A stretch of 55,933 nt of DNA, from positions 1 through 55,933 of IMG/VR virus record IMGVR_UViG_3300032331_000244; one strand, given 5' to 3'. The notes below the pieces were generated by a model that saw nothing but the letters and a program-made list of their open reading frames with translations, did no database searches and was not told the DNA's origin. The translations under genes were made by a program, and so were the position numbers. Numbering within the stretch: position 1 is the first letter of the stretch; each line of letters begins with the position of its first letter. Shown here piece by piece: positions 5,986 through 55,933 of the stretch. The DNA comes from a virus. Lineage: Duplodnaviria > Caudoviricetes.

Positions 5986-5998
5986 TACTAGGACAAGT

Positions 5999-6032: not shown

Positions 6033-6034
6033 TT

Positions 6035-10900: not shown

Positions 10901-11585
10901 AGGTGAAGAAGGATGTGTAACACGTAATACATACTTAGGATTGTTCTATCCAAGTGGAATTGCCCCTGACTTATCAGGTAATTTAGTTGCAGTACCTCCA
11001 AGTCACATGATGTTACGTACATTCTTACGTAATGATCAAATTGCTTATCCTTGGTTTGCAGCAGCAGGTACACGTAGAGGTAATATTGACAATGCTACAA
11101 ATATTGGTTATATTGATTTAACAACCGGCGAATTCATAACTATTAAAAATAGAATTGGATTACGTGATGTATTGTATATCAACTTTATCAATCCATTAAC
11201 ATTCTTTACTGGCATTGGCTTACTAAATTACGGCAACAAGACAAGTTACAATAGTTCTAGTGCATTAGATAGAACTAACGTAGCACGATTAATTGCGTAT
11301 GTACGTAGACAATTAACTTTAGCAACAAGACCGTTTGTATTTGAACCTAATGATGCATTAACTCGCAATCAAATTCAAGGTGTTGTTCAAACATTAATGG
11401 TTGATTTAGTTGCAAAACGTGGTATATATGACTATCTAGTTATATGTGATGCAAGTAATAATACACCTGCAAGAATAGATAGGAATGAACTTTGGGTAGA
11501 CGTAGCAATTGAGCCAGTAAAAGCGGCTGAATTTATTTACATTCCGGTTCGTGTGTTAAACACAGGTGAGATAGCATCATTATAA
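7986..11585 (+). CDS. Contractile tail sheath protein (gp18-like), enlarged
   Basis: MALTSPGVEVTIIDQS N-terminus; C-terminal PWFAAAGTRRG, LDRTNVARL, FVFEPND, CDASNNTPARIDRNELWVDVAIEPVKAAEFI. Confidence 0.95.
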   Translation: MALTSPGVEVTIIDQSQYLPAAGGGVPLVVFATAQNKSNPSKTGVAPGTTAANAGKLYQMTSQKDLVDFYGTPFFYSTTNGTPIQGYELNEYGLLAAYSALGITNRIYCLRADIDLSAYVGAVGRPTGAPADGLYWLDSTTSTWGIFQFSATRNNGRGGFVEVSPILISDETQTIAGVPLDSIGNIGDYAVVTIEPLIYPAKQQYYFKGFDNSWHGLGTPGWSGQWPTIQGTASNPTLNVGDVFRININGQTTFNVQVPASPNNTVFGVANAINDLAAAYVSADVVSGKLVIYSKTPNPGNTYLGVANITGTPLTALGIPLRNYFAPLVSYGTSAQQPLWTSTATAPHPTGSVWIKMGSSGNGQVPVMSQYNATSGAWITKNVTLALNDWTATSRLDATGGSLIPVGTIYGQYNFNNGYNNVATPTFYRVRSAVGPTIVTGNTTPTTFVPAFSLAAASIFVQVSVPSSSTLSSTYTVSVNTGATVSQFITAWTAAGIPYTSIGTNDNGEIVLSHTEGGEIMMNDFIRTAGANQGFSSGLIEQAGFVAGENCRYSSPISQSFLSLATTNITDPASAGTGATVNVTINDGIYMLTGTGVGNSAGTGYVVGDLVLVDGALLGGVSGTNDLTYVVTTVNGSGGVTGFSYYDGFGSGDFGVLLSNWATLTNYRVNEGAPVALPPNNTPWYWSVADQVDIMVQANGQWNGYRNINYDSSGQPQPSGTNATDPNGPIISASEPTTQSDDTALVYGDLWIDTSNLELFPLISRWESVDDKDMWVLIDNSNQTSPTGVLFADARWAGNGTTNVADDPIPTIKSLLTSDYLDLDAPNPDLYPEGMLLFNTRRSGYNVKEFKADYFNSFNFPDQSLPLEKATWLTVSGLQSNGSPYMGRKAQRQMVVKALRSVIDTNTEIRDEDNFFTLMATPAYPETQPNMVVLNADRGETCYILGDTPMRLPANATAIQAWATNAAGATSTGEEGCVTRNTYLGLFYPSGIAPDLSGNLVAVPPSHMMLRTFLRNDQIAYPWFAAAGTRRGNIDNATNIGYIDLTTGEFITIKNRIGLRDVLYINFINPLTFFTGIGLLNYGNKTSYNSSSALDRTNVARLIAYVRRQLTLATRPFVFEPNDALTRNQIQGVVQTLMVDLVAKRGIYDYLVICDASNNTPARIDRNELWVDVAIEPVKAAEFIYIPVRVLNTGEIASL

Positions 11586-37000: not shown

Positions 37001-39548
37001 TACTGCTAACATCACTGGTAATGCTAACGTTGGTAACATAGGTGCTACTCAAGGTATATTCAGTACAAGTGCTAACATTCCATTAATCATTAGCGGTACA
37101 AGTAATATTACACTTACATCAGGTGCTAATGTTTCAACATTCATTGGTGGAAATGCAACTGCTCAATTCGTAGTTACAGCAACCGGCGCAAACATTCCGG
37201 GTACCGCAAACATAACTGGCTTAATCACAGGTGGTAATATATCTACTACTGGTGCCAACGGAACTGTTACTGCAAATAATCACACTGTAACTGGTGCCGC
37301 AACTGGTAACATGAACGTTACTACGGTTACAGGTAATTTAGGTTTAAGATCAATATCAACAACATATACTGATAACGTAGTAGCAGCACTTGGTACATTA
37401 CCTATTGCAGCAGCACATGCTATTGCTACGCCAACGTATTCAACAACAGCTGCCGGTATCGTAACAGCAAACAACGCAGCAACATTCTATATACAAGCGG
37501 CACCAATTCCTACAGCAAATTTTGTATTTGGTAGTTCTAATGCTAATGCTTGGTCATTATATGTTGGTGGTGGTAACAGTTTCTTTGGTGGAAATATTGT
37601 CGGTACACTAGCAAACGGTAATAGTAATATTAGTATCGCAGCAGCAAATGCAAACGTTAACATATCAGCAGTTGGTGTTGCTAACGTACTAGTTGTTACT
37701 GGTACTGGCGCTAACATTGCGGGTACTGGTAACTTTACAGGTAATTTAACAGCAGCGGCACATTATGGCCCATTAGCAAACACTACAAGTAACGTTAGCA
37801 TACCGGCAGCAGCAGGAAACGTTAATATATCAGTCGGTGGTACGGCAAACGTACTAGTCTTGACTGCTACCGGTGCTAATATTCCGGGCACTGCTAACGT
37901 GGTTGGTTTAATCACCGGTGGGAATATTTCAACTACTGGTGCAAATGGCACAGTTACTGCAAATAATCATACAATAACTGGCGCAGCAACTGGTAACGTT
38001 AACGTTGGTACAATAGCAGGTAATGTAGGATTAAGGGCAGTATCCGCAACTTATACTGATAATCAAGCAGCAGCAACCGTAGCTAACGCAGCAATACATG
38101 CAATTGCAACTCCAACAATAGTTGGTTCAAATGCAATGATTTATACGAATATGGCAACATTCTATATTCAATCGGATGTAACGGCAAGCGGTGCCAATGC
38201 TACTATAACTAACAACTATGCATTGTTTGTTGCTCAAGGTAACAGTTTCTTTGGTGGCAACATCATTGGTACATTAGCAAATGGTAATAGTAATGTAAGA
38301 ATTGCTACTCCAAATGCAAACGTTGTTATCTCAGCAGTTGGTGTTGCCAACGTACTAGTTGTTACTGGTACTGGCGCTAACATTGCGGGTACTGGTAACT
38401 TTACAGGTAATTTAACAGCAGCAGCATATTATGGTCCATTAGCAAACACTACGAGTAATGTTAACATACCTGCAGCAGCAGGAAACGTTAACATATCAGT
38501 CGGTGGTACGGCTAACGTATTAGTTGTCACCGGTACTGGTGCAAATATAACAGGTACTGCTAACATCACTGGTAATGCAAATGCAGCTAATTTTGGTACT
38601 GGTACTGCTGTTATCACTACTGGTAACATCACTACAATCAATAGTGGTTTAATGCAAAATGGTACTGCTAATATTACTATTACCAGTAATGGTAATATTT
38701 CTATATTTGCTAATGCTAACGCAACTGCTGCATTGGTAATTGCTAATAGTGGTATAAATGTACCTGGGTATTCTAACGTAGTTGGTTCAATCACCGGTGG
38801 TAATATCTCAACGACTGGTGCTAATGGTACTGTACAAGCAAATAACTTTACTGTGACTGGTGCAGCGACTGGTAATATGAACGTTGGAACAGTTACAGGT
38901 AATTTAGGTTTTAGATCAATATCTACTACTTATACAGATAACATAGCAATTTCATCAGGTACAATACCTGTTGCAGCAGCACATGCTATTGCTACTCCTA
39001 CATATGCGGCAACAAACTCTGTAGTAACAGCAACCAACGCAGCAACATTCTATATTCAAGCAGCACCAATTCCTACAGCATCAATGGTATTTGGTAGTGC
39101 TAATGCTAATGCTTGGGCAATGTATGTAGGTGGAGGTAACAGTTACTTTGGTGGTAACGTTCGTGTAACAGCAGGCGGTATTACTTCTAACAACAGTACT
39201 GCAGGTGTTGGATACGCTGCGGGTGCCGGTAGTACAGGTACTCAGGGAACTAACCGTAATACTGCTGTTGCAATGACTGCTCCATGCGTATCTGGTTCAA
39301 TAACATTGTTCAGTACCACAACTCTTGCTAATACATGGAATAACTTTGCTGTATCTAACGTAGTATGTACAACATCAGATATAGTTATATTGAATATGCG
39401 TTCTGGCGGAAGTTTGAACAGTTATACGTTTGATATTGTATCAGTGGGTGCTAACACATTTACTATACAGGTATACAATGCAGTTGCTGTTGTGTCAGGT
39501 GAAGCCCCAGTACTTGGATTTGCAATTATTAAGGGTGCAGTATCATAA
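31023..39548 (+). CDS. Second giant repetitive tail fibre/adhesin-like protein (2841 aa)
   Basis: YPVPGVNNNSQGFRDNF N-terminus; LANGNSNVNIPAANGNVNISAVG repeats; seven copies of a ~110-aa TGNLG(I/L)R...AHAIA.PT...NAATFYI...GNSFFGG module. Confidence 0.85.
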   Translation: MSTINTNPINVNYPVPGVNNNSQGFRDNFASIVTNLNTAGAELTDLQNKVVVKQALIGTTVNNDMANTLISNASTRSFRATTYNLGGALSGTVLVNTSLADVHYGTVAENTQFNFGSWAPAGTQANVQLNLTVSNSLATIAFSGNVVVDNANNNGTSTLENFVNIDGLVTVTVPYGVTQLNYLITTTDCGSTLYVSPINRPRVATAVQQRTPTPTGMQGDVAGDVAVDNTYLYICSDSFNSGGGNTVVKTATATVSSGNLINVGSTTNLVVSSPIVFTGTTFGGIVANTTYYIKSLDGGGTSITVSEIGYEGVPGSAFAVSTASGTMTATSYNGDIIWRRMGVDSPAGNITIDGNLTVTYAANIGTTLNVVGNSNVGNLGTGGLIVATGNVTGGNLVTGGRLTVTGNANTGNLGTTRILASGNITATQLISNVATGTAPLVVTSTTLVPNLYVARANVASYANITALSSSGTYYPVFVNSSGASGNYALGTDNGLVFNATTNTVTTSFYTGTLTTAAQPNITSVGTLTSLGVNGTVTAVAFTANTGVFTGNGNGLRSIVGANVTGNVGNALYAYSVAVANVVGIGNIATVNLTGSTSTVLYGNGVFATPTTTTSISNGNSNVSIPAANGNVNISAVGNANILVVTGTGVNVAGTLNTGSGNITGGNLIGPLANGNSNVNIPAANGNVNISAVGNANILVVTGTGANITGTANISGNANVGNLGTAQVLATANITAPQLISNVAIGTAPLVVTSTTQVANLAVATAGNVAATLTSTGTAYLPFISATTTGNYPLQSNANFSANLANGYITATGFVGNGAALTDVSATVSNGTSNVSIPSINGNVNIVSAGNTTLAVTGTGANITGTGNFSGNVNAANLIGTGLYTNGTTGNAQIFYDSSNNSVGAFQGNIANYIQTYLWNSNVNANASASFAVYDTVGPTGSNFVDIGILSNTWSNASWTISGASDAYMYSGNSNLAIGTASSSNIIFFTGGTLAANERMRITTTGANITGTGNFSGNLSAANLIGPHANGNSNVNIPAANGNVNISAVGNANILVITGTGVNVAGTGNFTGNLSAAAHYGPLANGNSNVNIPAANGNVNISAVGNANILVVTGTGVNVAGTLNTGSGNINTTGNVSGAFFIGNGSQLTGLTISAGTAITNGNSNVSVVANANVNFSITGTPNVVSVTSGGIITSATNATITANNHTASGAASGNANVSTVTGNLGIRALAATYTDSVVAASTTVANAAIHAIDRPTLTATNASVTFTNAATFYIANSPANSGTTLITNPYSLFVAGGNSFFGGNIIGVLANGNSNVNIPAANGNVNISSAGNANVLTVTGTGANITGTANVSGLITGGNISTTSTDGTVTANNHTITGAANGNSNVSTITGNLGLRSLVTTYNEGNATASEVIANAAIHAIATPTVTATNTNVTATNMATFYIQSAPVQSTNMIITNPYALYVAAGNSFFGGNIIGVVANGTSNITMATSGNVSTFVGGNTTAQLVITSIGANIPGTATIGTANITTVNSSVIQNGNSNVSIVANANVNFGVTGTANVASITAAGIITTAANAAVTSNGFTASGVATGNSNVSTITGNLGIRALFSTYTDNSAISGATIANAAIHAFAAPNLAAANTLVTFTNAATMYIGGAPVANTNATITNPYALFVAGGNSFFGGSVIGTIANGTSNLRMTLNGNVTISAAGASNVFTVTGTGANVTGTANISGNANVGNIGAVNAIITTAANIPLIRSGTSNITLASGGNVSTFIGGNATAQLVVTSIGANIPGTATIGTANITTVNSSVIQNGNSNVSITANANINFNVTSTNIASITTAGILTNSANAAISANNFTATGAATGNLNVGTVTGNLGIRSISAVYSDPTATGAVAYIAAHAIATPTYSTTSSVTAGNAASFYIQAAPANAGALQLSTANSYALFVAAGNSFFGGNIIGGPYANGNSNVNIPAANGNVNISAVGIANVLVVTGTGANITGTANITGNANVGNIGATQGIFSTSANIPLIISGTSNITLTSGANVSTFIGGNATAQFVVTATGANIPGTANITGLITGGNISTTGANGTVTANNHTVTGAATGNMNVTTVTGNLGLRSISTTYTDNVVAALGTLPIAAAHAIATPTYSTTAAGIVTANNAATFYIQAAPIPTANFVFGSSNANAWSLYVGGGNSFFGGNIVGTLANGNSNISIAAANANVNISAVGVANVLVVTGTGANIAGTGNFTGNLTAAAHYGPLANTTSNVSIPAAAGNVNISVGGTANVLVLTATGANIPGTANVVGLITGGNISTTGANGTVTANNHTITGAATGNVNVGTIAGNVGLRAVSATYTDNQAAATVANAAIHAIATPTIVGSNAMIYTNMATFYIQSDVTASGANATITNNYALFVAQGNSFFGGNIIGTLANGNSNVRIATPNANVVISAVGVANVLVVTGTGANIAGTGNFTGNLTAAAYYGPLANTTSNVNIPAAAGNVNISVGGTANVLVVTGTGANITGTANITGNANAANFGTGTAVITTGNITTINSGLMQNGTANITITSNGNISIFANANATAALVIANSGINVPGYSNVVGSITGGNISTTGANGTVQANNFTVTGAATGNMNVGTVTGNLGFRSISTTYTDNIAISSGTIPVAAAHAIATPTYAATNSVVTATNAATFYIQAAPIPTASMVFGSANANAWAMYVGGGNSYFGGNVRVTAGGITSNNSTAGVGYAAGAGSTGTQGTNRNTAVAMTAPCVSGSITLFSTTTLANTWNNFAVSNVVCTTSDIVILNMRSGGSLNSYTFDIVSVGANTFTIQVYNAVAVVSGEAPVLGFAIIKGAVS
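37665..38530 (+). repeat. Near-identical ~190 bp duplication, period 666 bp
   Basis: TCAGCAGTTGGTGTTGC.AACGTACTAGTTGTTACTGGTACTGGCGCTAACATTGCGGGTACTGGTAACTTTACAGG at 37665 and 38331. Confidence 0.85.
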
Positions 39549-46031: not shown

Positions 46032-46835
46032 ATGGATCATTATACTACCTTGGGTGTAGCCAAAAACGCAGCACCTGATGAAATCAAAAAAGCATATCGA
46101 AAACTAGCTAGTCAGCATCATCCTGACAAGGGTGGCGACAAGGCTAAATTCCAAGAGATACAAGCGGCCTACGATACATTAAGTAACCCAGACAAACGAC
46201 AACAATACGACAATCCTGCACCGCAAGGATTCCATCAGCAAGGTGGCGTACCGCCTGGATTTGAACATATCTTTAGTCAGATGTTTGGTGGAGGTAACCC
46301 TTTTAATCCGTTCGGTCAGCAAAGACAACAGCCGCAGGCATTCAGAACTACAGTGGGAGTCACACTTGAACAAGCATATCATGGTAGTGAACAAATACTA
46401 AAACTACAAACACCCGCTAATACTCATGCAGTAACTATTAAAATTCCTAAAGGAATAAACAATGGCAATCAAATGCGTATTGATAATGTTTTAGATGGCG
46501 CTAGTTTAATGGTAGACTTTAGAGTTGAACCACATCTCAAATACGATAGACAGGGTAATGATTTATTATGTAATCATCAAATATCAGTACTAGATTTGAT
46601 TGTAGGTACTAGTTTTGAATTCACAACATTGTCTGGAAAGACATTAGAAGTTACAGTCAAACCAAAAACACAGCCATATATGCAATTAAAATTAGCAGGT
46701 CATGGCATGCCCATTTACAACACTAGTCAATACGGAGACCAAATTATATTGTTTAAACCATTCATACCTGATATAATAGACGAACAGATAGTAAATAGTA
46801 TTGCAGCCTATCAACAACAAAGGAATCAAAAATGA
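46032..46835 (+). CDS. dnaJ: DnaJ-class co-chaperone lacking the Zn finger (CbpA-like)
   Basis: J domain DHYTTLGV...[20 protein letters not shown] linker, C-terminal DnaJ domain. Confidence 0.93.
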
Positions 46836-49093
46836 ACCACTCACCCGAAATAGATAGTATTATTGAAAGTGCTATTGAATACTCAAAAGAAAGAAAACAC
46901 CAATATGTAACTGTGGAACATTTACTACTTGGATTGATAAATCACACTTCATTTAAAAAATGTTTGCAAAGTTTTGGGGCAGACATTGACACTATGAATC
47001 AGGAAATAAGTTGTTATTTGGACAGTTTACATGCTATTGTAAGCAAAGATGATGAAGTAGTCCCGCGTAAAACTAATAGCTTAGAACGTGTAATGAATCG
47101 TTGCGTCACGCAAGTATTGTTTAGCGGGCGCAGACAAGTTACAACTATAGATTTGTACTTGAGTATTGCCGCAGAAGGTAATAGTCATGCACATTATTTC
47201 TTGTTGAAATATGGAATTAACAAAAATGAGTTTGTCTCACATTGGCAAAAACATTATAAGCATAACGAAACTGGTAATCTAACTGATAACCAAGCAGATG
47301 AAATACTAGAAGAATATACAATCAATTTGACACAACTGGCAGCACAAGGTAAACTTGAGCCATTGATTGGTCGTAGTAAAGAACTGGATGATATCATTAA
47401 CGTACTTGCTAAAAGGTTCAAGAGTAATGTATTGATGGTTGGTGATCCCGGTGTTGGTAAAACGGCAATCGCTGAAGGACTAGCACAGATGATGATTAAC
47501 AAAGAAGTGCCAGAATTCTTGCAAGACCATCAATTATATAGTTTAGAGATTGGATCATTGCTTGCAGGGTCTAAATATCGAGGTGACTTTGAAGAAAAAG
47601 TAAAGCAGGTGCTAGACGCATTGAACACAAAGAAAAAGACTATTTTGTTCATTGATGAAGCGCATACTATGCAGGGTGCAGGTGGTGCCAACAATGGAAG
47701 TGTTGACTTCAGTAACATGATTAAGCCAGCAATTACTAAAGGAACACTTAAAGTTATTGCTAGCACAACATGGGAAGAATACTACGATAGCTTTGAGAAG
47801 GATCGTGCATTGATGCGTAGGTTCTATCGTATATCAGTTGATGAACCTAACCACGATACAACAATTCGCATTCTTAATGGATTGAGTCTCAGACTAAACG
47901 ACTTCCACAATGTTGAAATTAGTGATGAGGCTATTAAGGCAGCAGTTGAAAGTGCTGACCGTTATATTCATGACCGCAAAAACCCAGATAAATCTATTGA
48001 TTTACTTGATGCCGCTTGTGCTAAACAGCGTGTAGCAGAGAACAAGGGTGCAATTATTACTAAAGAACTAGTGTTCGACCAAGTTGAACGATTCACTGGT
48101 GTACCTGCTGATAAGATGAAGGGCGATAACTTTGACTTGATCCATAGCTTAGAATCAAACATTAAAGATAAACTGTATGGACAAGATGAAACTGTGCAAC
48201 AGGTACTTGAACGCATCTATGTTAACTTTGCTGGCATTGGTAACGACACTAAACCAACTGGTAGTTTCTTGTTCTTGGGACCAACTGGTACTGGTAAGAC
48301 TGAACTTGCTAAACTATTGAGCAAGAACTTAGATATGCCATTGCTTAAGTATGATATGAGCGAATACTCAGAGAAACATAGCGTTAGTAGTTTGATTGGA
48401 CCTCCCCCAGGTTATGTTGGGTTTGGTGACAGCCAAGTGAGTGGTGGACGATTGATTAACGACTTGAGCAAGAACCCACATTCAATTATGTTGTTTGATG
48501 AGGTTGAGAAAGCACATCCAGATATCTTTAACATCTTCTTACAGATGTTGGACGAAGGTCATATCACTGGCAGCAACGGGAAGCAAGTTAATTGCAAGAA
48601 CAGCATCATTATCATGACCAGTAATTTGGGTAGTAGTGATAGTGAACGCAACAACATTGGATTTGGTAGTCAAGAGAAGACCGGTGAAGATGATAAAGCA
48701 TTGAAAGAATTCTTCAAGCCCGAATTTAGAAATCGTGTTGACTTGATTTGCAAGTTTAACAAGTTAGATACACTTGCTATTAAGAAGATTGTTATCAAAT
48801 TTACCGATGACTTGAAAAAGAGTTTGGTTGACAAACATGATATCACATTGAACTTGACCGAGCCAGTAGTTGAATACTTGGCAGAGCAAGGGTATGATAA
48901 GAAGATGGGCGCACGACCACTAGCACGTAAGATTGATGAGTTGATTCGGGTACCTCTAAGTAAAAAAGTCTTGTTTGAACGCATTAAATCTGCTACAATC
49001 AATGTAGTGATGAACGAAGGTGCAATTGATTTTGCAGTAACACATAAACTAACAGCTAAGGTGAACGAAGATGGGATTATTGAGGTCAGTTAA
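46832..49093 (+). CDS. clpA: ClpA-like AAA+ unfoldase
   Basis: Clp N domain, two Walker A motifs ([16 protein letters not shown]), IGF loop (NNIGFGS), GARPL; no ClpB middle domain. Confidence 0.92.
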
Positions 49094-49793
49094 AGACGTT
49101 CCTAATATTGATTACTATGAATATAAGGAAAATAACTATTACGGCAAACATAGATACCGTGCAAAATTTAGTATCGACGGATTATCATTTACTAATTATG
49201 CTAAAACTCCAGATGATTTAATCAACCGATTAAATGAAGGTGGGTATCGTAAAATACGGCCAGATAGGAAAGCCTTAGTAATGGAAAAGATTACTGAACT
49301 TAGTAACTTCATTGATTGGCGTAACAGTAACAAAAAGTCCGTAACTTTCAGACTTGAGATGGATACCATGTCAGTGTATAGCAACAATTTAGAGTTGTTG
49401 CTTACATTGAAGGAACTTGGACTAGTTACCGTAAAAATCACAGAAGTGCAATTGGAGCAATTTGCTGGTACAAAGTACTATGTCAACGAACCAAAGCACA
49501 AGTATAGAATTTATTTAAAATCTAAGTATATTGAAGAAAGAAATTTTATTAAAGATTTGCATGATACCATCAAGAAAAGTAAAGAATTGGTTCCAAGTAA
49601 TGCATTAAAAATATGGTTAAATGAGTATATCAGACGCCCAATTGCTTCACTTAATAGTTGGAGTTATCGCTATACTAGCGGAACTCATTCTATTGACTAT
49701 GATAATGAAAGCACATTAAGCTATTTGATGCTAATGTATGGCCATATGCTTGGAAAACGCTATAAATTAGAAAAGCGACCCGTACCTGTCTGA
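49071..49793 (+). CDS. Hypothetical protein
   Basis: 240-aa ORF overlapping the end of clpA; internal YY...K(H)RYR/KYR duplication. Confidence 0.7.
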   Translation: MGLLRSVKDVPNIDYYEYKENNYYGKHRYRAKFSIDGLSFTNYAKTPDDLINRLNEGGYRKIRPDRKALVMEKITELSNFIDWRNSNKKSVTFRLEMDTMSVYSNNLELLLTLKELGLVTVKITEVQLEQFAGTKYYVNEPKHKYRIYLKSKYIEERNFIKDLHDTIKKSKELVPSNALKIWLNEYIRRPIASLNSWSYRYTSGTHSIDYDNESTLSYLMLMYGHMLGKRYKLEKRPVPV

Positions 49794-49796
49794 AAT

Positions 49797-49827
49797 GATA
49801 AATACTCTATTAATAATGGAGTATTTA
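49797..49827 (+). promoter_or_regulatory. Late promoter GATAAATA forming the 5' arm of an RBS-sequestering hairpin
   Basis: TAAATACTC (49799-49807) is the exact reverse complement of GAGTATTTA (49819-49827), covering the GGAG RBS. Confidence 0.8.
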
Positions 49828-49829
49828 CC

Positions 49830-49997
49830 ATGGCAAAGATTGTAGAAGATGTAGTAGTCATCAAATTTAGTAAAATCGTTAAAGATTCAGACACCGACAA
49901 TGGTGGACTTGTAGGTGCAGATGTTCAAGTTGCACTAGAGCAAGTTGCACAAGAATTAGTCGGTGAAAGTATTGTAGTAGAAGTGGTACGAGCATAA
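49830..49997 (+). CDS. Small hypothetical protein (55 aa, absent from the ORF track)
   Basis: MAKIVEDVVVIKFSKIVKDSDTDNGGLVGADVQVALEQVAQELVGESIVVEVVRA*; GGAG RBS, late promoter, TAATG coupling to the next gene. Confidence 0.85.
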   Translation: MAKIVEDVVVIKFSKIVKDSDTDNGGLVGADVQVALEQVAQELVGESIVVEVVRA

Positions 49998-50356
49998 TGA
50001 GCCAATCTACTACACTTATTCTGTTCCCGCAGACAGCTTATGTTAATCCGGGTAACGCATCGCCCTACACCGTTGTAGGGAATGCTCAACCTGCTGCTGC
50101 CTATTACTTAGGAAATAGAGATTTACAGACAGTTAACCTTAGTGTGTCAAACATTATAGGTAATATCGTCATCCAAGCTACACTAGCAAATCCAGCAACA
50201 GTAGATAATCAATGGTTTGATGTTTACGAATTCAATGGAAGCGATAATCCAAACGCAAGTCAATATACAAATATCACTGGAAACTTTGTGTATATGAGAG
50301 CAAAGATTGTAGATTTCCAACAAGGTGTAGTTAACTACGTGAAGTTGAGTTATTAA
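49997..50356 (+). CDS. Hypothetical beta-rich protein, probably structural
   Basis: GNIVIQATLA...WFDV...NITGNFVYMRAKI; in a late operon. Confidence 0.75.
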   Translation: MSQSTTLILFPQTAYVNPGNASPYTVVGNAQPAAAYYLGNRDLQTVNLSVSNIIGNIVIQATLANPATVDNQWFDVYEFNGSDNPNASQYTNITGNFVYMRAKIVDFQQGVVNYVKLSY

Positions 50357-50357
50357 A

Positions 50358-50801
50358 ATGAGTACAGAACTTTTCAGAAAGTATATTGACATGCTAAACG
50401 AAAGCATGGACATAGGCCAATTAGCACAAATTAGTGATAAGGCACTAGATGATGCATATCATTATGGTCGCAGTAGTCCTGGCAATACATTTGGATGGAA
50501 AGCTAATATGAAATCAGCCGAATTTGCATTGAAAGCAATTACGGCAGGTGAAAGAGATATTGAAAAGATTAGTGACGCAATACATCAAGGATGGAATGTA
50601 ACTGCTAAAGCATTTGTAGCACACCCAGAACAATTTGATGATACAGAAAAATTAAAAGCAGCAGGTAAGTTAGAAGCAAAACTTCAGCAGCGTGAAAAGT
50701 TGATGAACATTCCATATGCTCAACTATCAGATGAAGAACAAGAAAAAGACCGTGTAGTAGCCAGAGCGTTATTACAGGCAATAACAGGCAATCAACAATG
50801 A
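50358..50801 (+). CDS. RyR-domain-like protein with internal-protein leader
   Basis: SDAIHQGW...LMNIPYAQLSDEEQEKDRVVA matches the RyR repeat (H..W...LVPY..L.E.EK.KDR). Confidence 0.65.
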   Translation: MSTELFRKYIDMLNESMDIGQLAQISDKALDDAYHYGRSSPGNTFGWKANMKSAEFALKAITAGERDIEKISDAIHQGWNVTAKAFVAHPEQFDDTEKLKAAGKLEAKLQQREKLMNIPYAQLSDEEQEKDRVVARALLQAITGNQQ

Positions 50802-51697
50802 GTACAATAGTAATAATGCCCGGAGGCTTTCACCCGTTTCATGCAGGGCATGCCTCACTATATCAATCAGCATTGAAAGCATTTCCTGGTGCTGATGTAT
50901 ATGTGGCTGCTACTGACAGCCAAGAAGAAAGACCTTTCCCTTTTGCAATTAAAGAAAAACTTGCTAAGGTAGCAGGTGTAAAGAAAGGACATTTTGTTCA
51001 AGTTAAAAGTCCTTTCAAAGCAGAAGAAATAACAAGAAATTATGACCCTAATGGTGATGTATTAATATTTGTGCGTAGTGAGAAGGATCGTAACGAAAGT
51101 CCTAAACCAGGTGGGACAAAGAAAGATGGTAGTCCTGCATATTTTCAACCATATGATAGTAAAAATTTACAACCATTTAGCAAACATGCTTACATAGCTT
51201 ATTTACCAACGGTAGAGTTTGGGCCTGGTATTACTAGTGCTAGTGAGATTCGTTCAATGTGGCCTAAACTAAACGAGAAACGCAAGACTGCAATGGTAAT
51301 GAGTTTGTATCCAGCTACACAAAGTAACCCTGCATTAGCAGCAAATGTTGTTAAGTTATTAGATGCTGGTATGGGCGTAGAAAGTGTGAATGAAAAGATG
51401 AAGATGGGTGCTACGATTGAACCCGTAGAAGAAGGAGCAAAAGGTGCAATTGCTGGTGGAATAGCAGGTGCATATCTTACTAAAAACCCAAGAGGTACTA
51501 TAGCCGGTGCTGAATTAGGTAGCACCTTGCAGAACAAGTATAATGATGTTATGGCACATGTAGCAAAAGACTTGACCGGTACCGGTTCACCCGTCGCTAA
51601 ACTAAGAGTCGCAAGAGACACCGAACAAATGAAAAAGCGTGAGCGTAGCGATGGATTACCAGTCGAACCTAAATTTGATTACCTAGACGAAAAATAA
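50798..51697 (+). CDS. HxGH (cytidylyltransferase-like) nucleotidyltransferase with C-terminal appendages
   Basis: IVIMPGGFHPFHAGH and TSASEIR; after VEE a glycine-zipper segment GAIAGGIAGA...TIAGAELG. Confidence 0.8.
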   Translation: MSTIVIMPGGFHPFHAGHASLYQSALKAFPGADVYVAATDSQEERPFPFAIKEKLAKVAGVKKGHFVQVKSPFKAEEITRNYDPNGDVLIFVRSEKDRNESPKPGGTKKDGSPAYFQPYDSKNLQPFSKHAYIAYLPTVEFGPGITSASEIRSMWPKLNEKRKTAMVMSLYPATQSNPALAANVVKLLDAGMGVESVNEKMKMGATIEPVEEGAKGAIAGGIAGAYLTKNPRGTIAGAELGSTLQNKYNDVMAHVAKDLTGTGSPVAKLRVARDTEQMKKRERSDGLPVEPKFDYLDEK

Positions 51698-51711
51698 AAA
51701 TATTTCATACC

Positions 51712-51749
51712 CCTCTTCCTGATGTAAATAATTATATCTTAACAAGAGG
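51712..51749 (+). promoter_or_regulatory. Late promoter GTAAATA within an RBS-sequestering hairpin
   Basis: CCTCTT pairs with AAGAGG (RBS); GATGTAA pairs with TTATATC around the promoter. Confidence 0.6.
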
Positions 51750-51754
51750 ACCAT

Positions 51755-52684
51755 ATGGCAACAAGAAAACCCAAAGTAACTAAAGAAGAAAAAACAGTAC
51801 CAGTAGAAATGGTACAAGAAATCGCTGCAAATGCGGCAGCAGAGCAAGCTGCAAAAACAGATGCTCCAGCAGACCAAGCACCACAAGCTGGTCAAGTACA
51901 AGTAAATGTAGATTTCTTGCGTACAACCAAAGTGCATATCGCTATGCCATGTTATGGTGGTATGTTGACTGAATCCACATTTATGAGTTTCATTAAATGG
52001 GCTAACACAGCCCGTCAATTAAACATTGACTGGACATTGGAAACAATGGTCAACGAAAGTCTTATCAGTCGTGCCCGTAACACACTAACTGCTAAGTTCT
52101 TAGACATGCCAGATGCAACACACTTATTCTTTGTTGACGCTGACATTGGCTGGGAGCCATGGCATCTATTAGTATTATTGAACCGTGATGTTGATGTTAT
52201 CGGTGGATTGTATCCAATGAAGACTATGCCAATCAAATGGGTAGTTAACGGATTTGAAGGTGCTGAAGAAGGTCCAGACGGATTACAAGAAGTATCTAAA
52301 GCAGGCACAGGTTTCTTGTTAATGAAGAAGCATGTATTTGAAAAATTAAATTCACATCCTGCTGTTAAACAATACAAGAATGATATTGGACTTGATCCAA
52401 AATATGACCAACACTTGAAAACATATTTTGACACAGCAGTGCGTCAGAATCGCTACTACAGCGAAGATTGGACATTCTGTGAAAACTGGCGTGACTTAGG
52501 TGGACGCATCTGGATGGACAAGCGTGTATTATTGCGTCACAGTGGTAGTTATGTTTTCTGTATGGAAAATCAAGAACATCTGCTTAAGACAGTTGGACCA
52601 ATGTTCTTAGAACAACAACAAAGTCTGGGAATGAAATTAGTTGACAAAGATGGCAACGAAATCAAGTCAGTAAAAGCAGCGTAA
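51755..52684 (+). CDS. GT-A fold glycosyltransferase-like protein
   Basis: IAMPCYGG, ESLISRARN, LFFVDADI (DxD), GGLYPMK, GTGFLL, SEDWTFC, LRHSG. Confidence 0.8.
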   Translation: MATRKPKVTKEEKTVPVEMVQEIAANAAAEQAAKTDAPADQAPQAGQVQVNVDFLRTTKVHIAMPCYGGMLTESTFMSFIKWANTARQLNIDWTLETMVNESLISRARNTLTAKFLDMPDATHLFFVDADIGWEPWHLLVLLNRDVDVIGGLYPMKTMPIKWVVNGFEGAEEGPDGLQEVSKAGTGFLLMKKHVFEKLNSHPAVKQYKNDIGLDPKYDQHLKTYFDTAVRQNRYYSEDWTFCENWRDLGGRIWMDKRVLLRHSGSYVFCMENQEHLLKTVGPMFLEQQQSLGMKLVDKDGNEIKSVKAA

Positions 52685-52685
52685 A

Positions 52686-52707
52686 AAAAGCCCCGAAAGG
52701 GGCTTTT
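52686..52707 (+). terminator. Intrinsic terminator
   Basis: AAAAGCCCC-GAAA-GGGGCTTTT. Confidence 0.85.
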
Positions 52708-52724
52708 CTAATGATAAATAAACA

Positions 52725-54584
52725 ATGAATCTAAAAGAACTTAATAGCTTTAAACTAAGTGATGCAGTTACATTCCACGACAAACTTAACCCTAAGTTAT
52801 GGAATGGTACTAAGTTGCGCCCAGATGTTAGAGAACAGCTTATGCTGATTGCACAAGACTTTTTAGAAGAATTAGGTGTACATGATTTAGATGTAAAAGA
52901 CATAACAATATCAGGCAGTAATGCCGCATATAGCTATACAAAGCACAGTGATTTAGATTTACATATATTAGTAGACATGGGTAATTTGCCTGTTGATGAG
53001 GTATATAAAGAGTTGTTTACTGCTAAGAAAACAATATATAACGATACACATGATATAAAGATTCATACTATTCCAGTAGAATTATATGTACAAGACAGTA
53101 GACAACCTGTAGTAAGTTTAGGTGAATATAGTGTGTTAAATGACCAATGGATAAAAATACCCACTAAGCGTAGAAGTGATTTTGACCAAACCGCTACCAA
53201 AAGCAAGTATGAAAAATTATTAGGTTTGATAGAGATAGCCCTCAAATCAAGAAAATATATCAAAGTAAAACATATAATAGACACAATCAAAAGATATAGA
53301 CAAGCAGGACTAGATAAAGGCGGTGAATTTGGTCCTGAGAATTTAGCATATAAGATGTTGCGTAGTCAGGGATATATTACAAAACTATATGATTTAAGAG
53401 ACAAGTTACATAGTGAGAAGTTATCATTTGAAACTATGTATCAGAACATTGATGAAGAATCAAATCATTGGTATGATGCTGGCCTAAAGGATGCTCAACG
53501 TGATGCTAAACTATATCCTGACAGAGTTGTTAAAAAACTTAACCCACGCACACGTTTGAAAACCATGCAAGACAAGCGGGCACGACACCCAGAAGAAGTA
53601 GAACAATACTCACTTGGTTATAGAAGTCTTAAGCAAGGTGTAGCGGAAAACAAAGCCGATGGCATCAACAAAATGTTCAACAACCTAGGTGATCCTGTGT
53701 TTGCCAATTTGCAACGTGTGGCATTGTTAGCCATGCAGGGTAGACAAAGTGAAGCCGCTGGTCGTTTGCAAACTGTGATCAAAGGTGCCGATCCAGCTGT
53801 GCAAAAGAAAATTATTGATGCTGTAAACAACATCAAACCTGTGACAATAAATGGTCGTGTGGCAGATTCTAGCACACTGGACAAAAGCAAACAGCACAAT
53901 GACTGGATCATTAACACTTTTATTCCGTGGGTACAATCTTTACTAGGGCAGCAAGGTGTGGCGGAAGAATACAACACCATGCAATTTGCAGCAGAAAAAA
54001 CTCCTGCAATAAATCCATACGGCGGGCGTAAAGATAACCAATTTCGTGGTGGCATAAGTGAAGCCGCAGATAAAAAAATCAGTTTTAAAATACAAAAAGG
54101 CAATGGTAAATTCTCTACAACTTTGACTGTTAATAATTCTCCAGCTGGTATATATCAATATGATAGTAACACAGGGCGTAGCATTGCTGAAGTTTATCCA
54201 GAATTCAAAGGCAAAGGATTAGGTAAATTATTAGTTTTACATGCTATCTACACAGCAGCACAGTTAGGATTAGATTTCCAAGAAGATGAATCAAGAACCA
54301 GTGCTTATGATAATGTATTAGATAGTTTAAGTAGCAACGGTTATATTGTAGATGACGATGGATATTGGTACGTTACGGGAGAGGGAGAACAATATCTAAA
54401 ACGATCATTGAATGAAGCCTCAGGATATATCCCAAGCGAAAAACAAAAGAATGACCCACGATTCAAGACAGCACTAACCGTAGATGTACACCCTGACAGT
54501 ATAAAAAAGAACGCAAAAGCATTCTACTGGAACACCAGTCGTGCTGGAATACCCCCAACAGCTAAAGCAAACGGCAAAATCTAA
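52725..54584 (+). CDS. Multi-module protein: Pol-beta-superfamily nucleotidyltransferase, variable modules and a GNAT-like domain
   Basis: ISGSNAAYSYTKHSDLDLH...VELYVQD (GS, DxD, E); AEVYPEFKGKGLGKLL acetyl-CoA motif A; modules separated by IDE/GVAE/GVAE/ISE/LNE; GATAAATA 4 nt upstream. Confidence 0.8.
   Translation: MNLKELNSFKLSDAVTFHDKLNPKLWNGTKLRPDVREQLMLIAQDFLEELGVHDLDVKDITISGSNAAYSYTKHSDLDLHILVDMGNLPVDEVYKELFTAKKTIYNDTHDIKIHTIPVELYVQDSRQPVVSLGEYSVLNDQWIKIPTKRRSDFDQTATKSKYEKLLGLIEIALKSRKYIKVKHIIDTIKRYRQAGLDKGGEFGPENLAYKMLRSQGYITKLYDLRDKLHSEKLSFETMYQNIDEESNHWYDAGLKDAQRDAKLYPDRVVKKLNPRTRLKTMQDKRARHPEEVEQYSLGYRSLKQGVAENKADGINKMFNNLGDPVFANLQRVALLAMQGRQSEAAGRLQTVIKGADPAVQKKIIDAVNNIKPVTINGRVADSSTLDKSKQHNDWIINTFIPWVQSLLGQQGVAEEYNTMQFAAEKTPAINPYGGRKDNQFRGGISEAADKKISFKIQKGNGKFSTTLTVNNSPAGIYQYDSNTGRSIAEVYPEFKGKGLGKLLVLHAIYTAAQLGLDFQEDESRTSAYDNVLDSLSSNGYIVDDDGYWYVTGEGEQYLKRSLNEASGYIPSEKQKNDPRFKTALTVDVHPDSIKKNAKAFYWNTSRAGIPPTAKANGKI
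53632..53648 (+). repeat. QGVAE repeat, copy 1 (AGCAAGGTGTAGCGGAA)
   Basis: 16/17 identical to copies 2 and 3; in frame. Confidence 0.85.
53950..53967 (+). repeat. QGVAE repeat, copy 2 (AGCAAGGTGTGGCGGAAG)
   Basis: 18/18 identical to copy 3; 318 bp (106 codons) after copy 1. Confidence 0.9.
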
Positions 54585-54606
54585 AGTTTCCATATTACGG
54601 TATTTT

Positions 54607-54614
54607 GATAAATA
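54607..54614 (+). promoter_or_regulatory. Late promoter GATAAATA
   Basis: GATAAATACTCTAT is identical over 14 nt to the promoter at 49797; lies in an imperfect hairpin (GTTTCC...GGAAAC). Confidence 0.75.
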
Positions 54615-54637
54615 CTCTATAACTTTGGGAAACCATC

Positions 54638-55933
54638 ATGAGATTTAAGCAAATAATAGAAACAACCACAGCAGGATCAGTCGCAACCGTAGCAAAGCCT
54701 ATGATGACTCAAACCCGTGAAAATGTCAATGTTCCAGGACTAAAACCCGTAAAACAATTAATGAAAGGGAAGCCTAACAAGAAAGGTCCTTACGCTAATA
54801 GCATTACAGAAAGCAAAGTCAAAGAACTAACAATAGATTTAAAAGAGTTAACTACTGCTGAATTTCAAAAGAAATATGGAAAAACAAAAGCTGAAATCAA
54901 AGCAAGCATGACGGCAGTTAACGAAGATGATTTAGCAGAACAAGATTTAATCGTTATTCCAGGTCAAGGCAGATTAAGAAGAACCGGATTCGTTAAGCAT
55001 GATATGGATCAAGGTGAACATGAAGGACACACATTAAAGAACAGTCTACACACTATTGCCCGTGCTGCTAGTGAATTAGATGAGAGATTATCTGTTCAAT
55101 CTGAATTCCCTGAGTGGGTATCAGAGAAGATTGGCGCAGCAAAAAATATGATGGTTACTGTAATGGATTATCTAGTCAGCAGCCAAGAGATGCAACATGA
55201 TAGTGATGCCATGAATGAAGGCTCACAAAGAGTTGATTCACTTGTTACTGACGCATTGAAAGTAATGAAGGGTCCAGAAATAAGTGATGCTGTATTAGCG
55301 TTAAAGAGAGTATTAGGCGACAGAGCATATAATGAACGCCGCGGCTTTTATAGTTTCTATGTTGACCAAATACATGATATGTATAATCAGCAAAATATTA
55401 ATGAACTTAGTTCTGGTCTCTTGGGAAGAGCCGCAGAATTGGCTAAAAACAAAAGAGATCAAGCAATGGAGCCTGAGTTACATAATGCATTAGGTGGCGG
55501 TTATATGAATCCATTAGCAACACATTATGATGATGTATCACAAAAAATAAACAATAGGGCAGGACAAGTAAGAAAAAAAGAAACAATACAAAAAATCGCT
55601 TCTAAAATTGCTTCTCCGGCGGTGATGCGTAAGATGGGTATTACTGAAGGCGAAGTAAGCACTAGCAACTTACGCACAATGTATGACTTAGCTAGAATGG
55701 CTAAAAATTACTGTAGCCCTGAAGGACAAGAAGCACTTACTGAATTGTTAAAAATTCTTAAATGGTATATGGATCAAGCAGAGCAAGGTGTGGCGGAAGG
55801 TGACATGTACGGTGATGCAGAAGTAAGTTGGGAAAAAGGCGGTCGTAGAGCGCCAACTGGCGCATTCAGAAATCCAAACTTTGGTAACGTACTTCAAAAA
55901 AGTGTAAACAAACACAATAAAGCTATAGTTAAA
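54638..55933 (+). CDS. Modular probable internal virion polyprotein (partial, runs off the window)
   Basis: Open for 432 codons from ATG 54638: MRFKQIIETTTAGSVA...FPEWVSEKI...QGVAEGD...; modules separated by ITE/VNE/MNE/INE/ITE/VAE. Confidence 0.8.
   Translation, partial: MRFKQIIETTTAGSVATVAKPMMTQTRENVNVPGLKPVKQLMKGKPNKKGPYANSITESKVKELTIDLKELTTAEFQKKYGKTKAEIKASMTAVNEDDLAEQDLIVIPGQGRLRRTGFVKHDMDQGEHEGHTLKNSLHTIARAASELDERLSVQSEFPEWVSEKIGAAKNMMVTVMDYLVSSQEMQHDSDAMNEGSQRVDSLVTDALKVMKGPEISDAVLALKRVLGDRAYNERRGFYSFYVDQIHDMYNQQNINELSSGLLGRAAELAKNKRDQAMEPELHNALGGGYMNPLATHYDDVSQKINNRAGQVRKKETIQKIASKIASPAVMRKMGITEGEVSTSNLRTMYDLARMAKNYCSPEGQEALTELLKILKWYMDQAEQGVAEGDMYGDAEVSWEKGGRRAPTGAFRNPNFGNVLQKSVNKHNKAIVK
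55782..55799 (+). repeat. QGVAE repeat, copy 3 (AGCAAGGTGTGGCGGAAG)
   Basis: Identical to copy 2, in frame, in a different gene. Confidence 0.9.

Follow-up and report, generated by a model that had tools for sequence, protein, structure and literature searches.

A short DNA word fixed at silent sites joins exchangeable in-frame modules in proteins of uncultured T4-like jumbo phages and may double as a protease site

Introduction

Why should unrelated protein modules, lying in two neighbouring phage genes, be joined by the same few nucleotides, always in one frame, and what does such a joint do? An earlier note on this DNA had read the joint, a short GC-rich word encoding QGVAE, in two ways at once: as an integron-like recombination site for the in-frame gain or loss of domain cassettes, and as the site at which a T4-type prohead protease would free each cassette in the capsid.

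The window (the whole stretch of DNA analyzed, 55,933 nt) is a 16%-complete fragment of an uncultured T4-like jumbo phage. The larger comparison set comprised about 2.2 Mb of related viral contigs, in which loci were collected either through similarity to the window genes or through presence of the word and thus form a non-random sample. Megablast of the region and tblastn of the second gene (54638-55933) gave no match among GenBank phages, and these searches found no cultured relative of the polyproteins. Logan contigs of four public runs, from three studies, cover the region, as do RNA-library contigs of run X18, whose coverage is no proof of transcription. A scan of genome contigs for the word returned 72 stretches. 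The majority are either chance occurrences in genomes rich in GC or belong to a single conserved gene of Microcoleus; a few contigs of low GC content from metagenome bins resemble the phage system but provide no reliable host.

Results

The word in the window, AGCAAGGTGT(G/A)GCGGAA(G/A), occurs in three in-frame copies (Table 1). Searching the window for CAAGGTGTGGCGGAAG at up to 3 mismatches returned exactly three matches, all on the + strand, at 53634 (2 mismatches), 53952 (0), and 55784 (0); none of 100 shuffles reached three (mean 0.16), and no further GVAE is present in any of the six frames. All copies read (K/Q/E)-Q-G-V-A-E in the frame of ORFs 52725-54584 and 54638-55933, and copy 1 differs from the other two at 2 of 18 positions (GTA for GTG; final A). 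With 12 of its 18 bases G or C, the word is GC-rich for genomes of about 37% GC, and its Val and Ala codons are rare, GTG accounting for 9% of 1176 Val codons and GCG for 6% of 1667 Ala codons in the window genes. The number and positions of the copies, and the identity of copies 2 and 3 despite a preference for A/T-ending codons, are therefore as the earlier note had described. The three copies share no hairpin (z-scores 0.62, -1.49, and 1.94), and no Rfam match was found in 49000-55933.

Table 1. Positions of the linker word, the genes that carry it, and neighbouring features in the window
Feature	Position	Strand	Details
Free-standing one-module gene	50358..50801	+	leader MSTELFRKYIDMLNE at 50358-50402 (…DMLNE)
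Cytidylyltransferase-like gene	50798..51697	+	
Decayed junction GMGVESVNE	51368-51394	+	in the 50798..51697 gene, ahead of the KMKMGATIEP module
Hairpin GCCCC GAAA GGGGC, then TTTTCT	52690..52709	+	after the stop of gene 51755-52684; looks like a terminator
GATAAATA	52713..52720	+	12 nt upstream of the 52725 start; resembles T4-type late promoter
Three-module gene	52725..54584	+	ORF, 619 aa
Module 0, nucleotidyltransferase-like	52725..53648	+	308 aa, ends in QGVAE
Word copy 1	53632..53649	+	AGCAAGGTGTAGCGGAAA, K-Q-G-V-A-E; joins NTase module to 106-codon module
Module 1, 106-codon cassette	53649..53966	+	includes 3' linker
Word copy 2	53950..53967	+	AGCAAGGTGTGGCGGAAG, Q-Q-G-V-A-E; joins 106-codon module to C-terminal 205-aa part
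Module 2, C-terminal part	53967..54581	+	205 aa; GNAT-like core and 55-aa tail
Decayed junction G-G-I-S-E	54048..54062	+	relatives have QGVAE there, before GNAT-like module
Junction R-S-L-N-E without word	54402..54416	+	ahead of ASGYIPSEKQ tail
GATAAATA	54607..54614	+	31 nt upstream of the 54638 start
Second linker-bearing gene	54638..55933	+	3' open; starts MRFKQIIE
Junction Q-Q-N-I-N-E	55388..55405	+	relatives have ...MYNQQ-GVAE at the same place
Word copy 3	55782..55799	+	same as copy 2; E-Q-G-V-A-E; neighbouring gene

The description of both genes as late genes is supported by one feature, the promoter-like motif GATAAATA ahead of each; the motif occurs 9 times on the + strand, 8 of them 12-31 nt before listed gene starts, structural genes included. 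A sigma-70 promoter scan gave no excess over shuffles (22 vs 23.0). The terminator-like hairpin was read directly from the sequence and is not listed by the terminator consensus scan.

To characterize the modules of the 619-aa protein, we compared each with related loci. Residues 15-232 match phrog_36119 (E 6e-42), and GenBank phage homologues, which are stand-alone genes annotated as nucleotidyltransferase, cover only residues 1-250; no Pfam family matched either linker-bearing gene above cut-off. Module 0 is 86-96% identical to the first modules of loci L005, L006, L007, and L008, where other modules follow, and the L005, L006, and L007 proteins end in C-terminal parts that match module 2 at 92-96% identity. 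Between them, the end of copy 1 (53648) and the end of copy 2 (53966) bracket a module of 318 nt, or exactly 106 codons. Its content of G/C-ending codons (GC3 0.426, vs 0.251 in the NTase module and 0.259 in the next) lies at the 98.9th percentile of 1276 windows of 106 codons, and it gave neither a Pfam hit nor a usable ESM Atlas hit. It recurs, 87-96% identical, in 7 other loci with different neighbours before and after it. Relatives of the module 2 core match the GNAT families Acetyltransf_1 and Acetyltransf_7, and the module 2 tail comes after QGVAE in L019 and L034 (as KKQGVAE before the same ASGYIPSEKQ in L019). The G-G-I-S-E junction at 54048 has lost the DNA word and retained hydrophobic-x-Glu. 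An AlphaFold2 model of the whole protein, built without an alignment, was unusable for domain borders (mean pLDDT 37.3), and a MAFFT alignment of module fragments against the whole protein was set aside (23-57% identity where BLAST gives 86-96%).

The neighbouring genes repeat this pattern. The second gene has homologues with varying modules in 9 loci; in run X2, the word follows behind 55393 in a contig, and a contig has different sequence ahead of 55784 (copy 3); a contig of run X1 departs from the window sequence right behind 53968 (copy 2). The KMKMGATIEP module of the cytidylyltransferase-like gene comes after QGVAE in L012, L014, and L017, and the orthologue of that gene in relative G002 is a 714-aa polyprotein with QGLAE, QGVKE, and QGVAE. 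Fused into the same polyprotein is the module that stands free in the window at 50358, which from residue 14 is 59% identical to a module behind QGVAE in L058 (E 5e-46). The claim that the copies lie at junctions between unrelated modules, made from the window, is thus borne out through the module contexts of relatives, as is the occurrence of module 1 in other gene contexts; its exact bracketing and its codon composition hold within the window.

Across the comparison set, the exact 18-mer is present in at least 119 stretches of independent viral contigs. GVAE in 88 related loci falls 194 times on the coding strand and once on the other; the word at up to 3 mismatches has 197 unique copies on the + strand vs 1 on the - strand, and 191 of 198 copies are open in frame 0. 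We counted codons at 118 de-duplicated junctions and compared them with the flanks: Gly of the word is GGT in 114 (51% in flanks), Val is GTG in 98 (19%), and Ala is GCG in 104 (8%). This bias reaches beyond the peptide, with AAG at 38 and AAA at 5 junctions for the codon two before GGT, and GGC at 48 and GGT at 13 for a Gly codon after the word, giving for the joint (K/E/Q)-Q-G-V-A-E-(G) the consensus AG CAA GGT GTG GCG GAA GGC. As a control from the same loci, the leader M[KR]xx[DE][FIL][ILVF]xE at 133 gene starts varies normally at silent sites. Orthologous junctions yielded 8 pairs, too few for a synonymous-rate test. These data reveal that the nucleotides of the joint are fixed beyond what the peptide needs; relatives keep the same codons at silent sites, on one strand and in one frame, rather than varied synonyms, as conservation at the DNA level had implied.

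The word joins hundreds of unrelated modules: 224 unique ORFs contain 667 modules, which fall into 453 clusters, and a single ORF has as many as 8 joints; NTase, GNAT, deaminase, ParB_N, and GIY-YIG domains are identifiable among the modules. Pairwise comparison of 412 junctions gave 117 pairs with at least 85% identity upstream and at most 45% downstream, and 87 pairs with the opposite pattern; only 7 pairs reached 85% identity on both flanks. The sequences start to diverge between nt +11 and +17 in 110 of the 117 upstream-sharing pairs; for the 87 downstream-sharing pairs, the start of divergence lies between nt -7 and +2 in 74; homology among aligned relatives breaks at the edges of the word, where indel breakpoints had been predicted. 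Many homology boundaries lie away from an intact motif as well (821 of 1392 HSP starts and 1009 of 1467 HSP ends are more than 30 residues from any GVAE), which counts against exchange at the word. Collinear, non-identical junctions, of which the set holds only 20, have the word intact in 8, with 2-3 mismatches in 5, and decayed or absent in 7; the decayed junctions of the window read GISE, SLNE, and NINE.

Contigs of the four runs, which can reveal neither absence nor rare variants, include none joining 53648 to 53967 as in a genome without the 318-nt unit. A joint 53648>55780 in run X6, one side of which has only 21 letters, was set aside and is not evidence because those letters are the word itself. 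Five records, two of them rated 100% complete, contain no match to PF00589 (Tyr recombinase; 14 of 14 control genomes respond) or to PF00239 (Ser recombinase; control genomes respond), and 4 of the 5 have a RecA/UvsX-like match.

Based on these comparisons, the joint is a point where relatives gain, lose, and exchange modules, and cassette shuffling as proposed in the earlier note is well supported: the word bounds hundreds of modules, its silent sites are frozen, and breakpoints fall on it. We consider it rather likely that exchange occurs by recombination across the 15-20 nt GC-rich word, performed by the general phage recombination machinery. The integron-like part of the proposal holds as an analogy; as a mechanism it is at odds with the lack of Tyr or Ser recombinases in the five records, the lack of a shared hairpin, and copies that are direct and in frame, and short-homology recombination offers a simpler mechanism. 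In this reading, uncultured T4-like jumbo phages of one clade use the joint to chain unrelated small modules into long proteins at one hypervariable locus; new junctions would constantly be made from intact words, which would keep the word uniform, and in junctions that stay in place the word would decay.

The protease half of the proposal is consistent with the variation of the peptide, in which QGVAE appears as a putative cut site. Among 538 in-frame word variants, Glu occupies P1 in 527 and V/I/L/M occupies P3 in 533, whereas Ala at P2 (462), Gly at P4 (479), and Gln at P5 (408) are less constant. The T4 capsid-targeting sequence MKTYQEFIAE, which ends ...FIAE, is cleaved once, next to it, according to PMC8442874, and PMC5694885 gives ITE-6 and LTE-619 as the sites at which gp21 cleaves Alt. 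Many linker-locus genes start with a leader of the form M[KR]xxEF[IL]xE that resembles this T4 sequence. A leader ending in hydrophobic-x-Glu is present at the starts of the 54638 gene, which resembles the leader family, the 50358 gene, and 133 genes of relatives; cytidylyltransferase-led genes have no clear leader, and that of the 52725 gene is doubtful because its start, MNLKE, belongs to the NTase domain conserved in stand-alone homologues. Leader-bearing genes adjoin polyprotein genes in G002, and the same module occurs behind a leader or behind QGVAE, with only 7 of 315 post-word module probes having a homologue behind a leader. Just upstream of places homologous to a post-word module start, hydrophobic-x-Glu is missing in 441 of 1362 cases, and it is itself a loose rule, found in the first 15 residues of 346 of 1007 control ORFs.

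Matches above cut-off to PF03420 (gp21-family prohead protease, E 1e-27 to 1e-29) and to PF07068 (Gp23 capsid protein, E about 1e-99) are present in all 4 larger relatives; neither family matches in the window, as the window is so partial a fragment. On balance, we lean slightly toward a cut by a gp21-type prohead protease between V-A-E and G. Each module would thereby become a separate internal (ejected) protein, much as the T4 internal proteins are freed from their capsid-targeting leader.

Discussion

Taken as a whole, the system is probably one of short-homology cassette exchange at a dual-use linker that probably also serves as a protease site. It is conceivable, if doubtful, that the word is a recombination joint only and QGVAE an uncleaved flexible spacer of multi-domain cytoplasmic enzymes. 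Frozen DNA alone would fix the peptide, the modules that can be recognised are enzyme domains of ordinary kinds, proteins led by an NTase or a cytidylyltransferase carry no leader, and the locus adjoins a clamp loader and a ClpA/B-like ATPase rather than lying in the head gene block. A spacer, however, needs neither the retention of P1 Glu and hydrophobic P3 in mutated words whose P2, P4, and P5 drift, nor hydrophobic-x-Glu in decayed junctions, nor modules that also follow T4-like targeting leaders with the same ending. An integron- or shufflon-like system, in which a dedicated site-specific recombinase or homing-type nuclease recognises the word and moves the cassettes, is improbable: a uniform, GC-rich word in low-GC genomes, breakpoints confined to it, and one module in 150 with a GIY-YIG nuclease domain could be so explained, but the two recombinase families are absent from the five records, the copies are all direct (197 to 1) with no shared hairpin or Rfam match in the window, and the word decays in junctions that are stable, which is expected if no function protects it.

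We give very little credence to an action of the word in mRNA, as a translational pause at domain borders or a binding site, with module exchange secondary. GTG and GCG are rare codons here, and AAGGTG in the word resembles a Shine-Dalgarno sequence; GGT, GAA, and CAA are nevertheless common codons, so that the conserved element is one particular word, not a stretch of rare codons. Moreover, no structure is conserved, the word is lost or damaged in 12 of the 20 collinear junctions, and homology would not be expected to break at the edges of a pause signal. An origin of the pattern by chance or through faulty assembly, finally, is refuted by the shuffles, by the recurrence of the 18-mer in independent viral contigs, and by the public-run contigs that cover the region.

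The linker system shares features with several known systems and differs from each. Like it, the T-even internal proteins (IPI, IPII, IPIII, Alt) come from T4-type phages with a gp21-family protease and Gp23 and form a hypervariable accessory set sharing only a short signal that ends in hydrophobic-x-Glu; unlike them, the modules here are chained in frame by a second, internal signal of frozen DNA, distinct from the leader, whose DNA is not frozen, and packaging and cleavage are predicted. The CdiA VENN and Rhs core-tip motifs are likewise short peptides that mark a constant/variable border, with homology stopping at the motif-encoding DNA, as found here in the junction pairs; the Rhs motif is also a self-cleavage site. 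Polymorphic toxins, however, are bacterial; each protein has a single variable tip and is accompanied by a cognate immunity gene, by orphan modules, and by a secretion system, whereas the phage ORFs carry several cassettes in series. No immunity gene lies between the modules, which form one open frame, and no secretion component was seen; we do not file the finding under polymorphic toxins. De Chateau and Bjorck (1996, PNAS 93:8490) reportedly described a conserved in-frame interdomain DNA, 'Recer', in Gram-positive surface proteins, and are said to have proposed it as a shuffling aid and spacer; organisms and sequences differ from those here, and no protease role is known to have been proposed for Recer.

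Within the T4 superfamily itself, short conserved sequences lie beside hypervariable segments and have been proposed as mediators of exchange (PMC3157838; see also PMC2839356 and PMC4122927) in two other settings: the glycine-rich motifs of T4-type gp38 and the PeSL promoter-terminator cassettes of T4-type genomes. The former are structural parts of one domain and the latter intergenic regulatory cassettes; unlike the word, neither is an in-frame universal linker between unrelated domains. Integrons (attC x attI, IntI) resemble the locus in having serial, exchangeable cassettes delimited by a recurring site, but no IntI or other integrase was found in the five records (PF00589), the site is unfolded, and the cassettes are in-frame modules, not whole genes. 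Shufflons use inverted repeats and an Rci-type recombinase, in contrast to the coding-strand bias of the word and the lack of a tyrosine recombinase. The architecture, the site pattern, and the protease gene of relatives would fit a viral polyprotein, in which a consensus site for a virus-encoded protease separates several mature products of one ORF; mature products are a prediction here. Our literature search found no description of the system; the papers listed for QGVAE concern alpha-synuclein or unrelated topics.

If the dual-use reading is true, a widespread clade of lake jumbo phages combines domains inside genes, diversifying injected or accessory proteins, by a joint that doubles as recombination site and processing site. 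The joint would further be one of few clear examples of nucleotide-level conservation in a coding linker, with an internal control in the leader. Used jointly, word and leader offer a simple way to pick out candidate capsid cargo in uncultured T4-like phages; over 450 module clusters were recovered, the majority of which belong to no known family, and the idea that short homologies organise modular phage evolution becomes testable. More tentatively, the word could be an evolved universal joint, kept identical across hundreds of unrelated modules because it lets co-infecting jumbo phages recombine in frame a common library of capsid-delivered effector modules, possibly aided by a nuclease that targets the word, with the same five residues guiding the head protease. 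If real, such a universal joint would give phages an equivalent of integrons and polymorphic toxins, operating within coding sequence.

Copies of the Word in the Window

The GC-rich repeat on which the earlier note was built recurs at three sites in the window, each read in frame as (K/Q/E)-Q-G-V-A-E, in two neighboring ORFs, the first of 619 aa and the second open at its 3′ end (Table); the observation is right in all details checked. Scanning for the 16-mer core of this word at ≤3 mismatches returned exactly these three matches, all on the same strand, against a shuffle mean of 0.16, and 0 of 100 shuffles reached three; the six frames of the window hold no GVAE outside them. The GTG and GCG codons, said to run against the genome's preference, account for 9% of Val and 6% of Ala codons in the window's own genes. 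Copies 1 and 2 bracket a module of exactly 106 codons, whose reported richness in G/C-ending codons is seen in a GC3 of 0.426, vs. 0.251 in the NTase-like module upstream and 0.259 in the module downstream (98.9th percentile of 1,276 equal-size windows).

GATAAATA stands ahead of both linker genes, at −12 for the first and −31 for the second. Of its nine + strand sites, eight lie 12 to 31 nt before a listed gene start, and some of these genes are structural; of the one or two sites on the − strand, one stands 28 nt ahead of a virion-protein gene (2356-4068). The T4 late-promoter consensus is TATAAATA, which occurs once in the window. The phage's late promoter is probably GATAAATA.

Table. Linker copies, modules, decayed junctions, and promoter-like sites in the window
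Feature	Position	Strand	Gene or detail
Linker copy 1	18-mer start 53632; 16-mer core 53634, 2 mismatches	+	ORF 52725-54584
Linker copy 2	18-mer start 53950; core 53952, exact	+	ORF 52725-54584
Linker copy 3	18-mer start 55782; core 55784, exact	+	ORF 54638-55933
Module 0	52725-53648		NTase-like
Module 1	53649-53966		106-codon cassette
Module 2	53967-54581		205-aa C-terminal part
Decayed junction GGISE	54048		
Decayed junction SLNE	54402		
Decayed junction QQNINE	55388		
Decayed junction GMGVESVNE			gene 50798
GATAAATA	6008, 11627, 13588, 14892, 18295, 44225, 49797, 52713, 54607	+	52713 and 54607 ahead of the linker genes
GATAAATA	4096	−	ahead of gene 2356-4068
TATAAATA	18306		

The Window and Its Relatives

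The window, which is the entire IMG/VR record, has a CheckV completeness of 16% and a G+C content of 37.7%, and encodes a tail sheath, a tail tube, a T4 gp15-like protein, a clamp loader, and a ClpA/B-like ATPase. The sheath gene (7986-11585, 1,199 aa) is unusually long, and two giant ORFs are present (18326-27856, 3,176 aa; 31023-39548, 2,841 aa). The ATPase, a ClpA/ClpB-like double AAA+ protein with a Clp_N domain (46832-49093; phrog_4871, E 1.7e-236), is encoded just upstream of the linker locus, as it does in G002, a related record rated complete. The gene order around the finding in G002 is kept: ClpA-like, two small genes, a cytidylyltransferase-led polyprotein, a 301-aa gene, an NTase-led protein, a polyprotein led by MKISQIIQE, and a 1,004-aa polyprotein. 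Above Pfam cut-offs, four larger relatives (264-525 kb; two of these records are rated complete) have a Gp23 capsid protein (E about 1e-99) and a prohead protease of the gp21 family (E about 1e-28), the latter at 5674-6309 in G002; the same four also have a RecA/UvsX-like gene. In the 524,565-bp record G001, word sites at 176506 and 176887 are repeated at 524059 and 524440 with equal spacing and an offset of about 347.5 kb; the sequence is possibly a ~348 kb genome concatenated 1.5-fold. Among GenBank phages, homologues of the NTase domain (residues 1-250) are only stand-alone and the second linker-bearing gene has no homologue; the clade therefore has no cultured member among them.

Recurrence and Silent-Site Conservation of the Word

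Homology searches with the two window proteins gathered 88 loci (about 0.97 Mb), in which GVAE is encoded 194 times on the coding strand and once on the other, in 124 distinct contexts. Viral contigs contain the exact 18-mer in at least 119 stretches. In a wider set of 217 viral loci (2.18 Mb), GVAE occurs in 224 unique ORFs, with 1 to 8 joints per ORF, and their 667 modules fall into 453 clusters (70% mutual cover); internal modules span 34 to 440 residues, two 4-residue pieces excepted. In complete genomes the word is limited to one to three small clusters, all nine sites of G002 lying within 183.8-192.9 kb.

The bacterial and archaeal genome collection yielded 72 stretches with the 18-mer, mostly chance occurrences in GC-rich genomes or one conserved Microcoleus gene, and only a few low-GC contigs in metagenome bins resemble the phage system. 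In about 30 Microcoleus genomes (L238-L304) the 18-mer sits inside that same gene (…LIGVTPKQGVAEADIFDH…), which appears unrelated to the phage system. One to three in-frame words are found on low-GC binned contigs, namely L296 (8.9 kb, Bacteroidetes metagenome bin), L294, and L267 (Haliscomenobacter bin), which probably belong to phages and were binned together with bacterial sequence, so that any hint of a host from them is weak.

Codons were counted at 118 de-duplicated junctions, with their own flanks for comparison. Gly is GGT at 114 junctions (51% in the flanks), Val is GTG at 98 (19%), Ala is GCG at 104 (8%), and Glu is GAA at 107 (80%). Ahead of the Gly, Gln is CAA in 92 cases and CAG in 1, and the codon before it is AAG in 38 vs. 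AAA in 5, with GAG (19) and CAG (15) also in use; a Gly behind the word is GGC in 48 vs. GGT in 13 (GGC 25% in flanks). The conserved object is therefore a nucleotide word of ~20 nt, beyond the peptide, as the earlier note had suspected from two identical copies. The leader peptide M[KR]xx[DE][FIL][ILVF]xE, present at 133 distinct gene starts of the same loci, serves as a control and varies freely at silent sites (GCA/GCC/GCT, GAA/GAG, TTT/TTC, ATT/ATA/ATC). Judged by this control, selection on a peptide alone leaves silent sites unfrozen in these genomes.

Module Exchange at the Word

We compared 412 unique junctions with full flanks, scoring identity over the 87 nt upstream and in the downstream flank. 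Similarity upstream (≥85%) with divergence downstream (≤45%) was seen in 117 pairs and the reverse in 87, while only 7 pairs reached ≥85% on both sides. With numbering from the first G of GGTGTGGCGGAA, divergence sets in at nt +11 to +17 in 110 of the 117 upstream-sharing pairs, and its edge lies at nt −7 to +2 in 74 of the 87 downstream-sharing pairs; homology breakpoints fall on the word. The window protein illustrates the pattern: it shares its NTase module with the related loci L005-L008 (86-96% identity) and its C-terminal 205 residues with the ends of L005-L007 (92-96%), and between these shared ends the window has one 106-residue module, L007 has 123 + 282 residues, and L006 has 292 + 155. 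Module 1, which the earlier note proposed to look for in other gene contexts, is found in seven of them at 87-96% identity. Contigs (not reads) of three public sequencing runs end or change at word edges, behind 53968 (X1), behind 53648 (X18), and before 55784 (X2). Protein HSPs start within 10 residues of an intact GVAE in 391 of 1,392 cases and end there in 379 of 1,467, compared with 82 and 71 for random positions; as a counterweight, most internal HSP boundaries lie away from intact GVAE. The word is shown to be a DNA-frozen, in-frame joint at which modules exchange. At L027 10809, a 15-nt linker is present that is exactly missing in L030, L026, and L007, with otherwise collinear flanks (…KTNE, then EQHSCPHC…).

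Collinear junctions between diverged loci are rare (8 pairs with both flanks ≥60% identical). Probing with tblastn yielded 20 non-identical collinear junctions: the word is intact in 8, carries 2-3 mismatches in 5, and is decayed or absent in 7; with the decayed junctions of the window (Table), this small sample indicates that the word is not strongly protected at stable junctions. Almost every junction with an intact word, in turn, is unique. The pattern, small sample as it is, argues against a static signal in RNA or DNA and fits a continuous supply of new junctions from intact words that recombine with each other. The word has no shared hairpin and no match to an Rfam family. Tyrosine and serine recombinases were not matched in five records, while control genomes gave matches; the integron-like part of the original proposal survives as an analogy, and in-frame exchange at the word stands. 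We consider it rather likely that modules are exchanged by homologous or short-homology recombination across the word, whose uniformity would be kept by the turnover of junctions.

The Linker as a Putative Protease Site

The T4 cleavage consensus is usually given as Leu/Ile-x-Glu. Among 538 unique in-frame copies (≤3 mismatches to the word), the residue ahead of the supposed cut (P1) is Glu in 527 and P3 is Val, Met, Leu, or Ile in 533, with Ala at P2 in 462, Gly at P4 in 479, and Gln at P5 in 408; hydrophobic-x-Glu is also kept at decayed junctions. This matches the described cutting by T4-type head proteases, all reported to cleave C-terminal to glutamic acid, as in the processing of Alt by gp21 at ITE-6 and LTE-619 (PMC5694885). 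The T4 capsid-targeting sequence, MKTYQEFIAE, is likewise described as removed by one cut (PMC8442874).

Leaders stand at the start of many linker-bearing ORFs and their neighbors (MRAKEFITE, MKINEFLIE, MKPSDFLTE, MRFKQIIE), and in G002 (L101, L228) six leader genes in a row (194866-201220) lie right behind the polyprotein genes. The leader family, large across the loci, resembles the T4 capsid-targeting sequence. Some modules occur both after a leader and after QGVAE: window gene 50358 (147 aa) is, from residue 14 on, 59% identical to a post-QGVAE module of L058, and for 7 of the 315 post-word modules used as probes a homologue sits behind a leader. The capsid protein of the four relatives reads KKQLLAE, then SS, just ahead of its Gp23-family-matching part. 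Against a protease site, hydrophobic-x-Glu is loose, being found near the start in 346 of 1,007 control ORFs; homologous module starts lack such a site upstream in 441 of 1,362 cases; and two leading module types have no leader. Of the 453 clusters, 150 module representatives were scanned; Pfam assigns most of them to no family and none to a peptidase. The kept hydrophobic-x-Glu pattern and the gp21-family protease of the relatives agree with the protease-site claim, and we lean slightly toward it: a prohead protease would cut the linker after its Glu, and the modules would become separate head-internal proteins.

Relation to Known Systems

Literature searches on the linker peptide and on polyproteins of jumbo phages turned up no account of this system. 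The "recer" interdomain sequences are among the closest known systems. Close to it as well are the T-even internal proteins with a targeting sequence (PMC3012670), the VENN-type demarcation motifs of polymorphic toxins, for which recombination between motif-encoding sequences was proposed (PMC3150448), and the conserved motifs proposed to mediate shuffling in T4-type genomes (PMC3157838, PMC2839356). The phage system unites serial in-frame cassettes, one universal word frozen at its silent sites, and a likely protease site, a combination held by none of those four.
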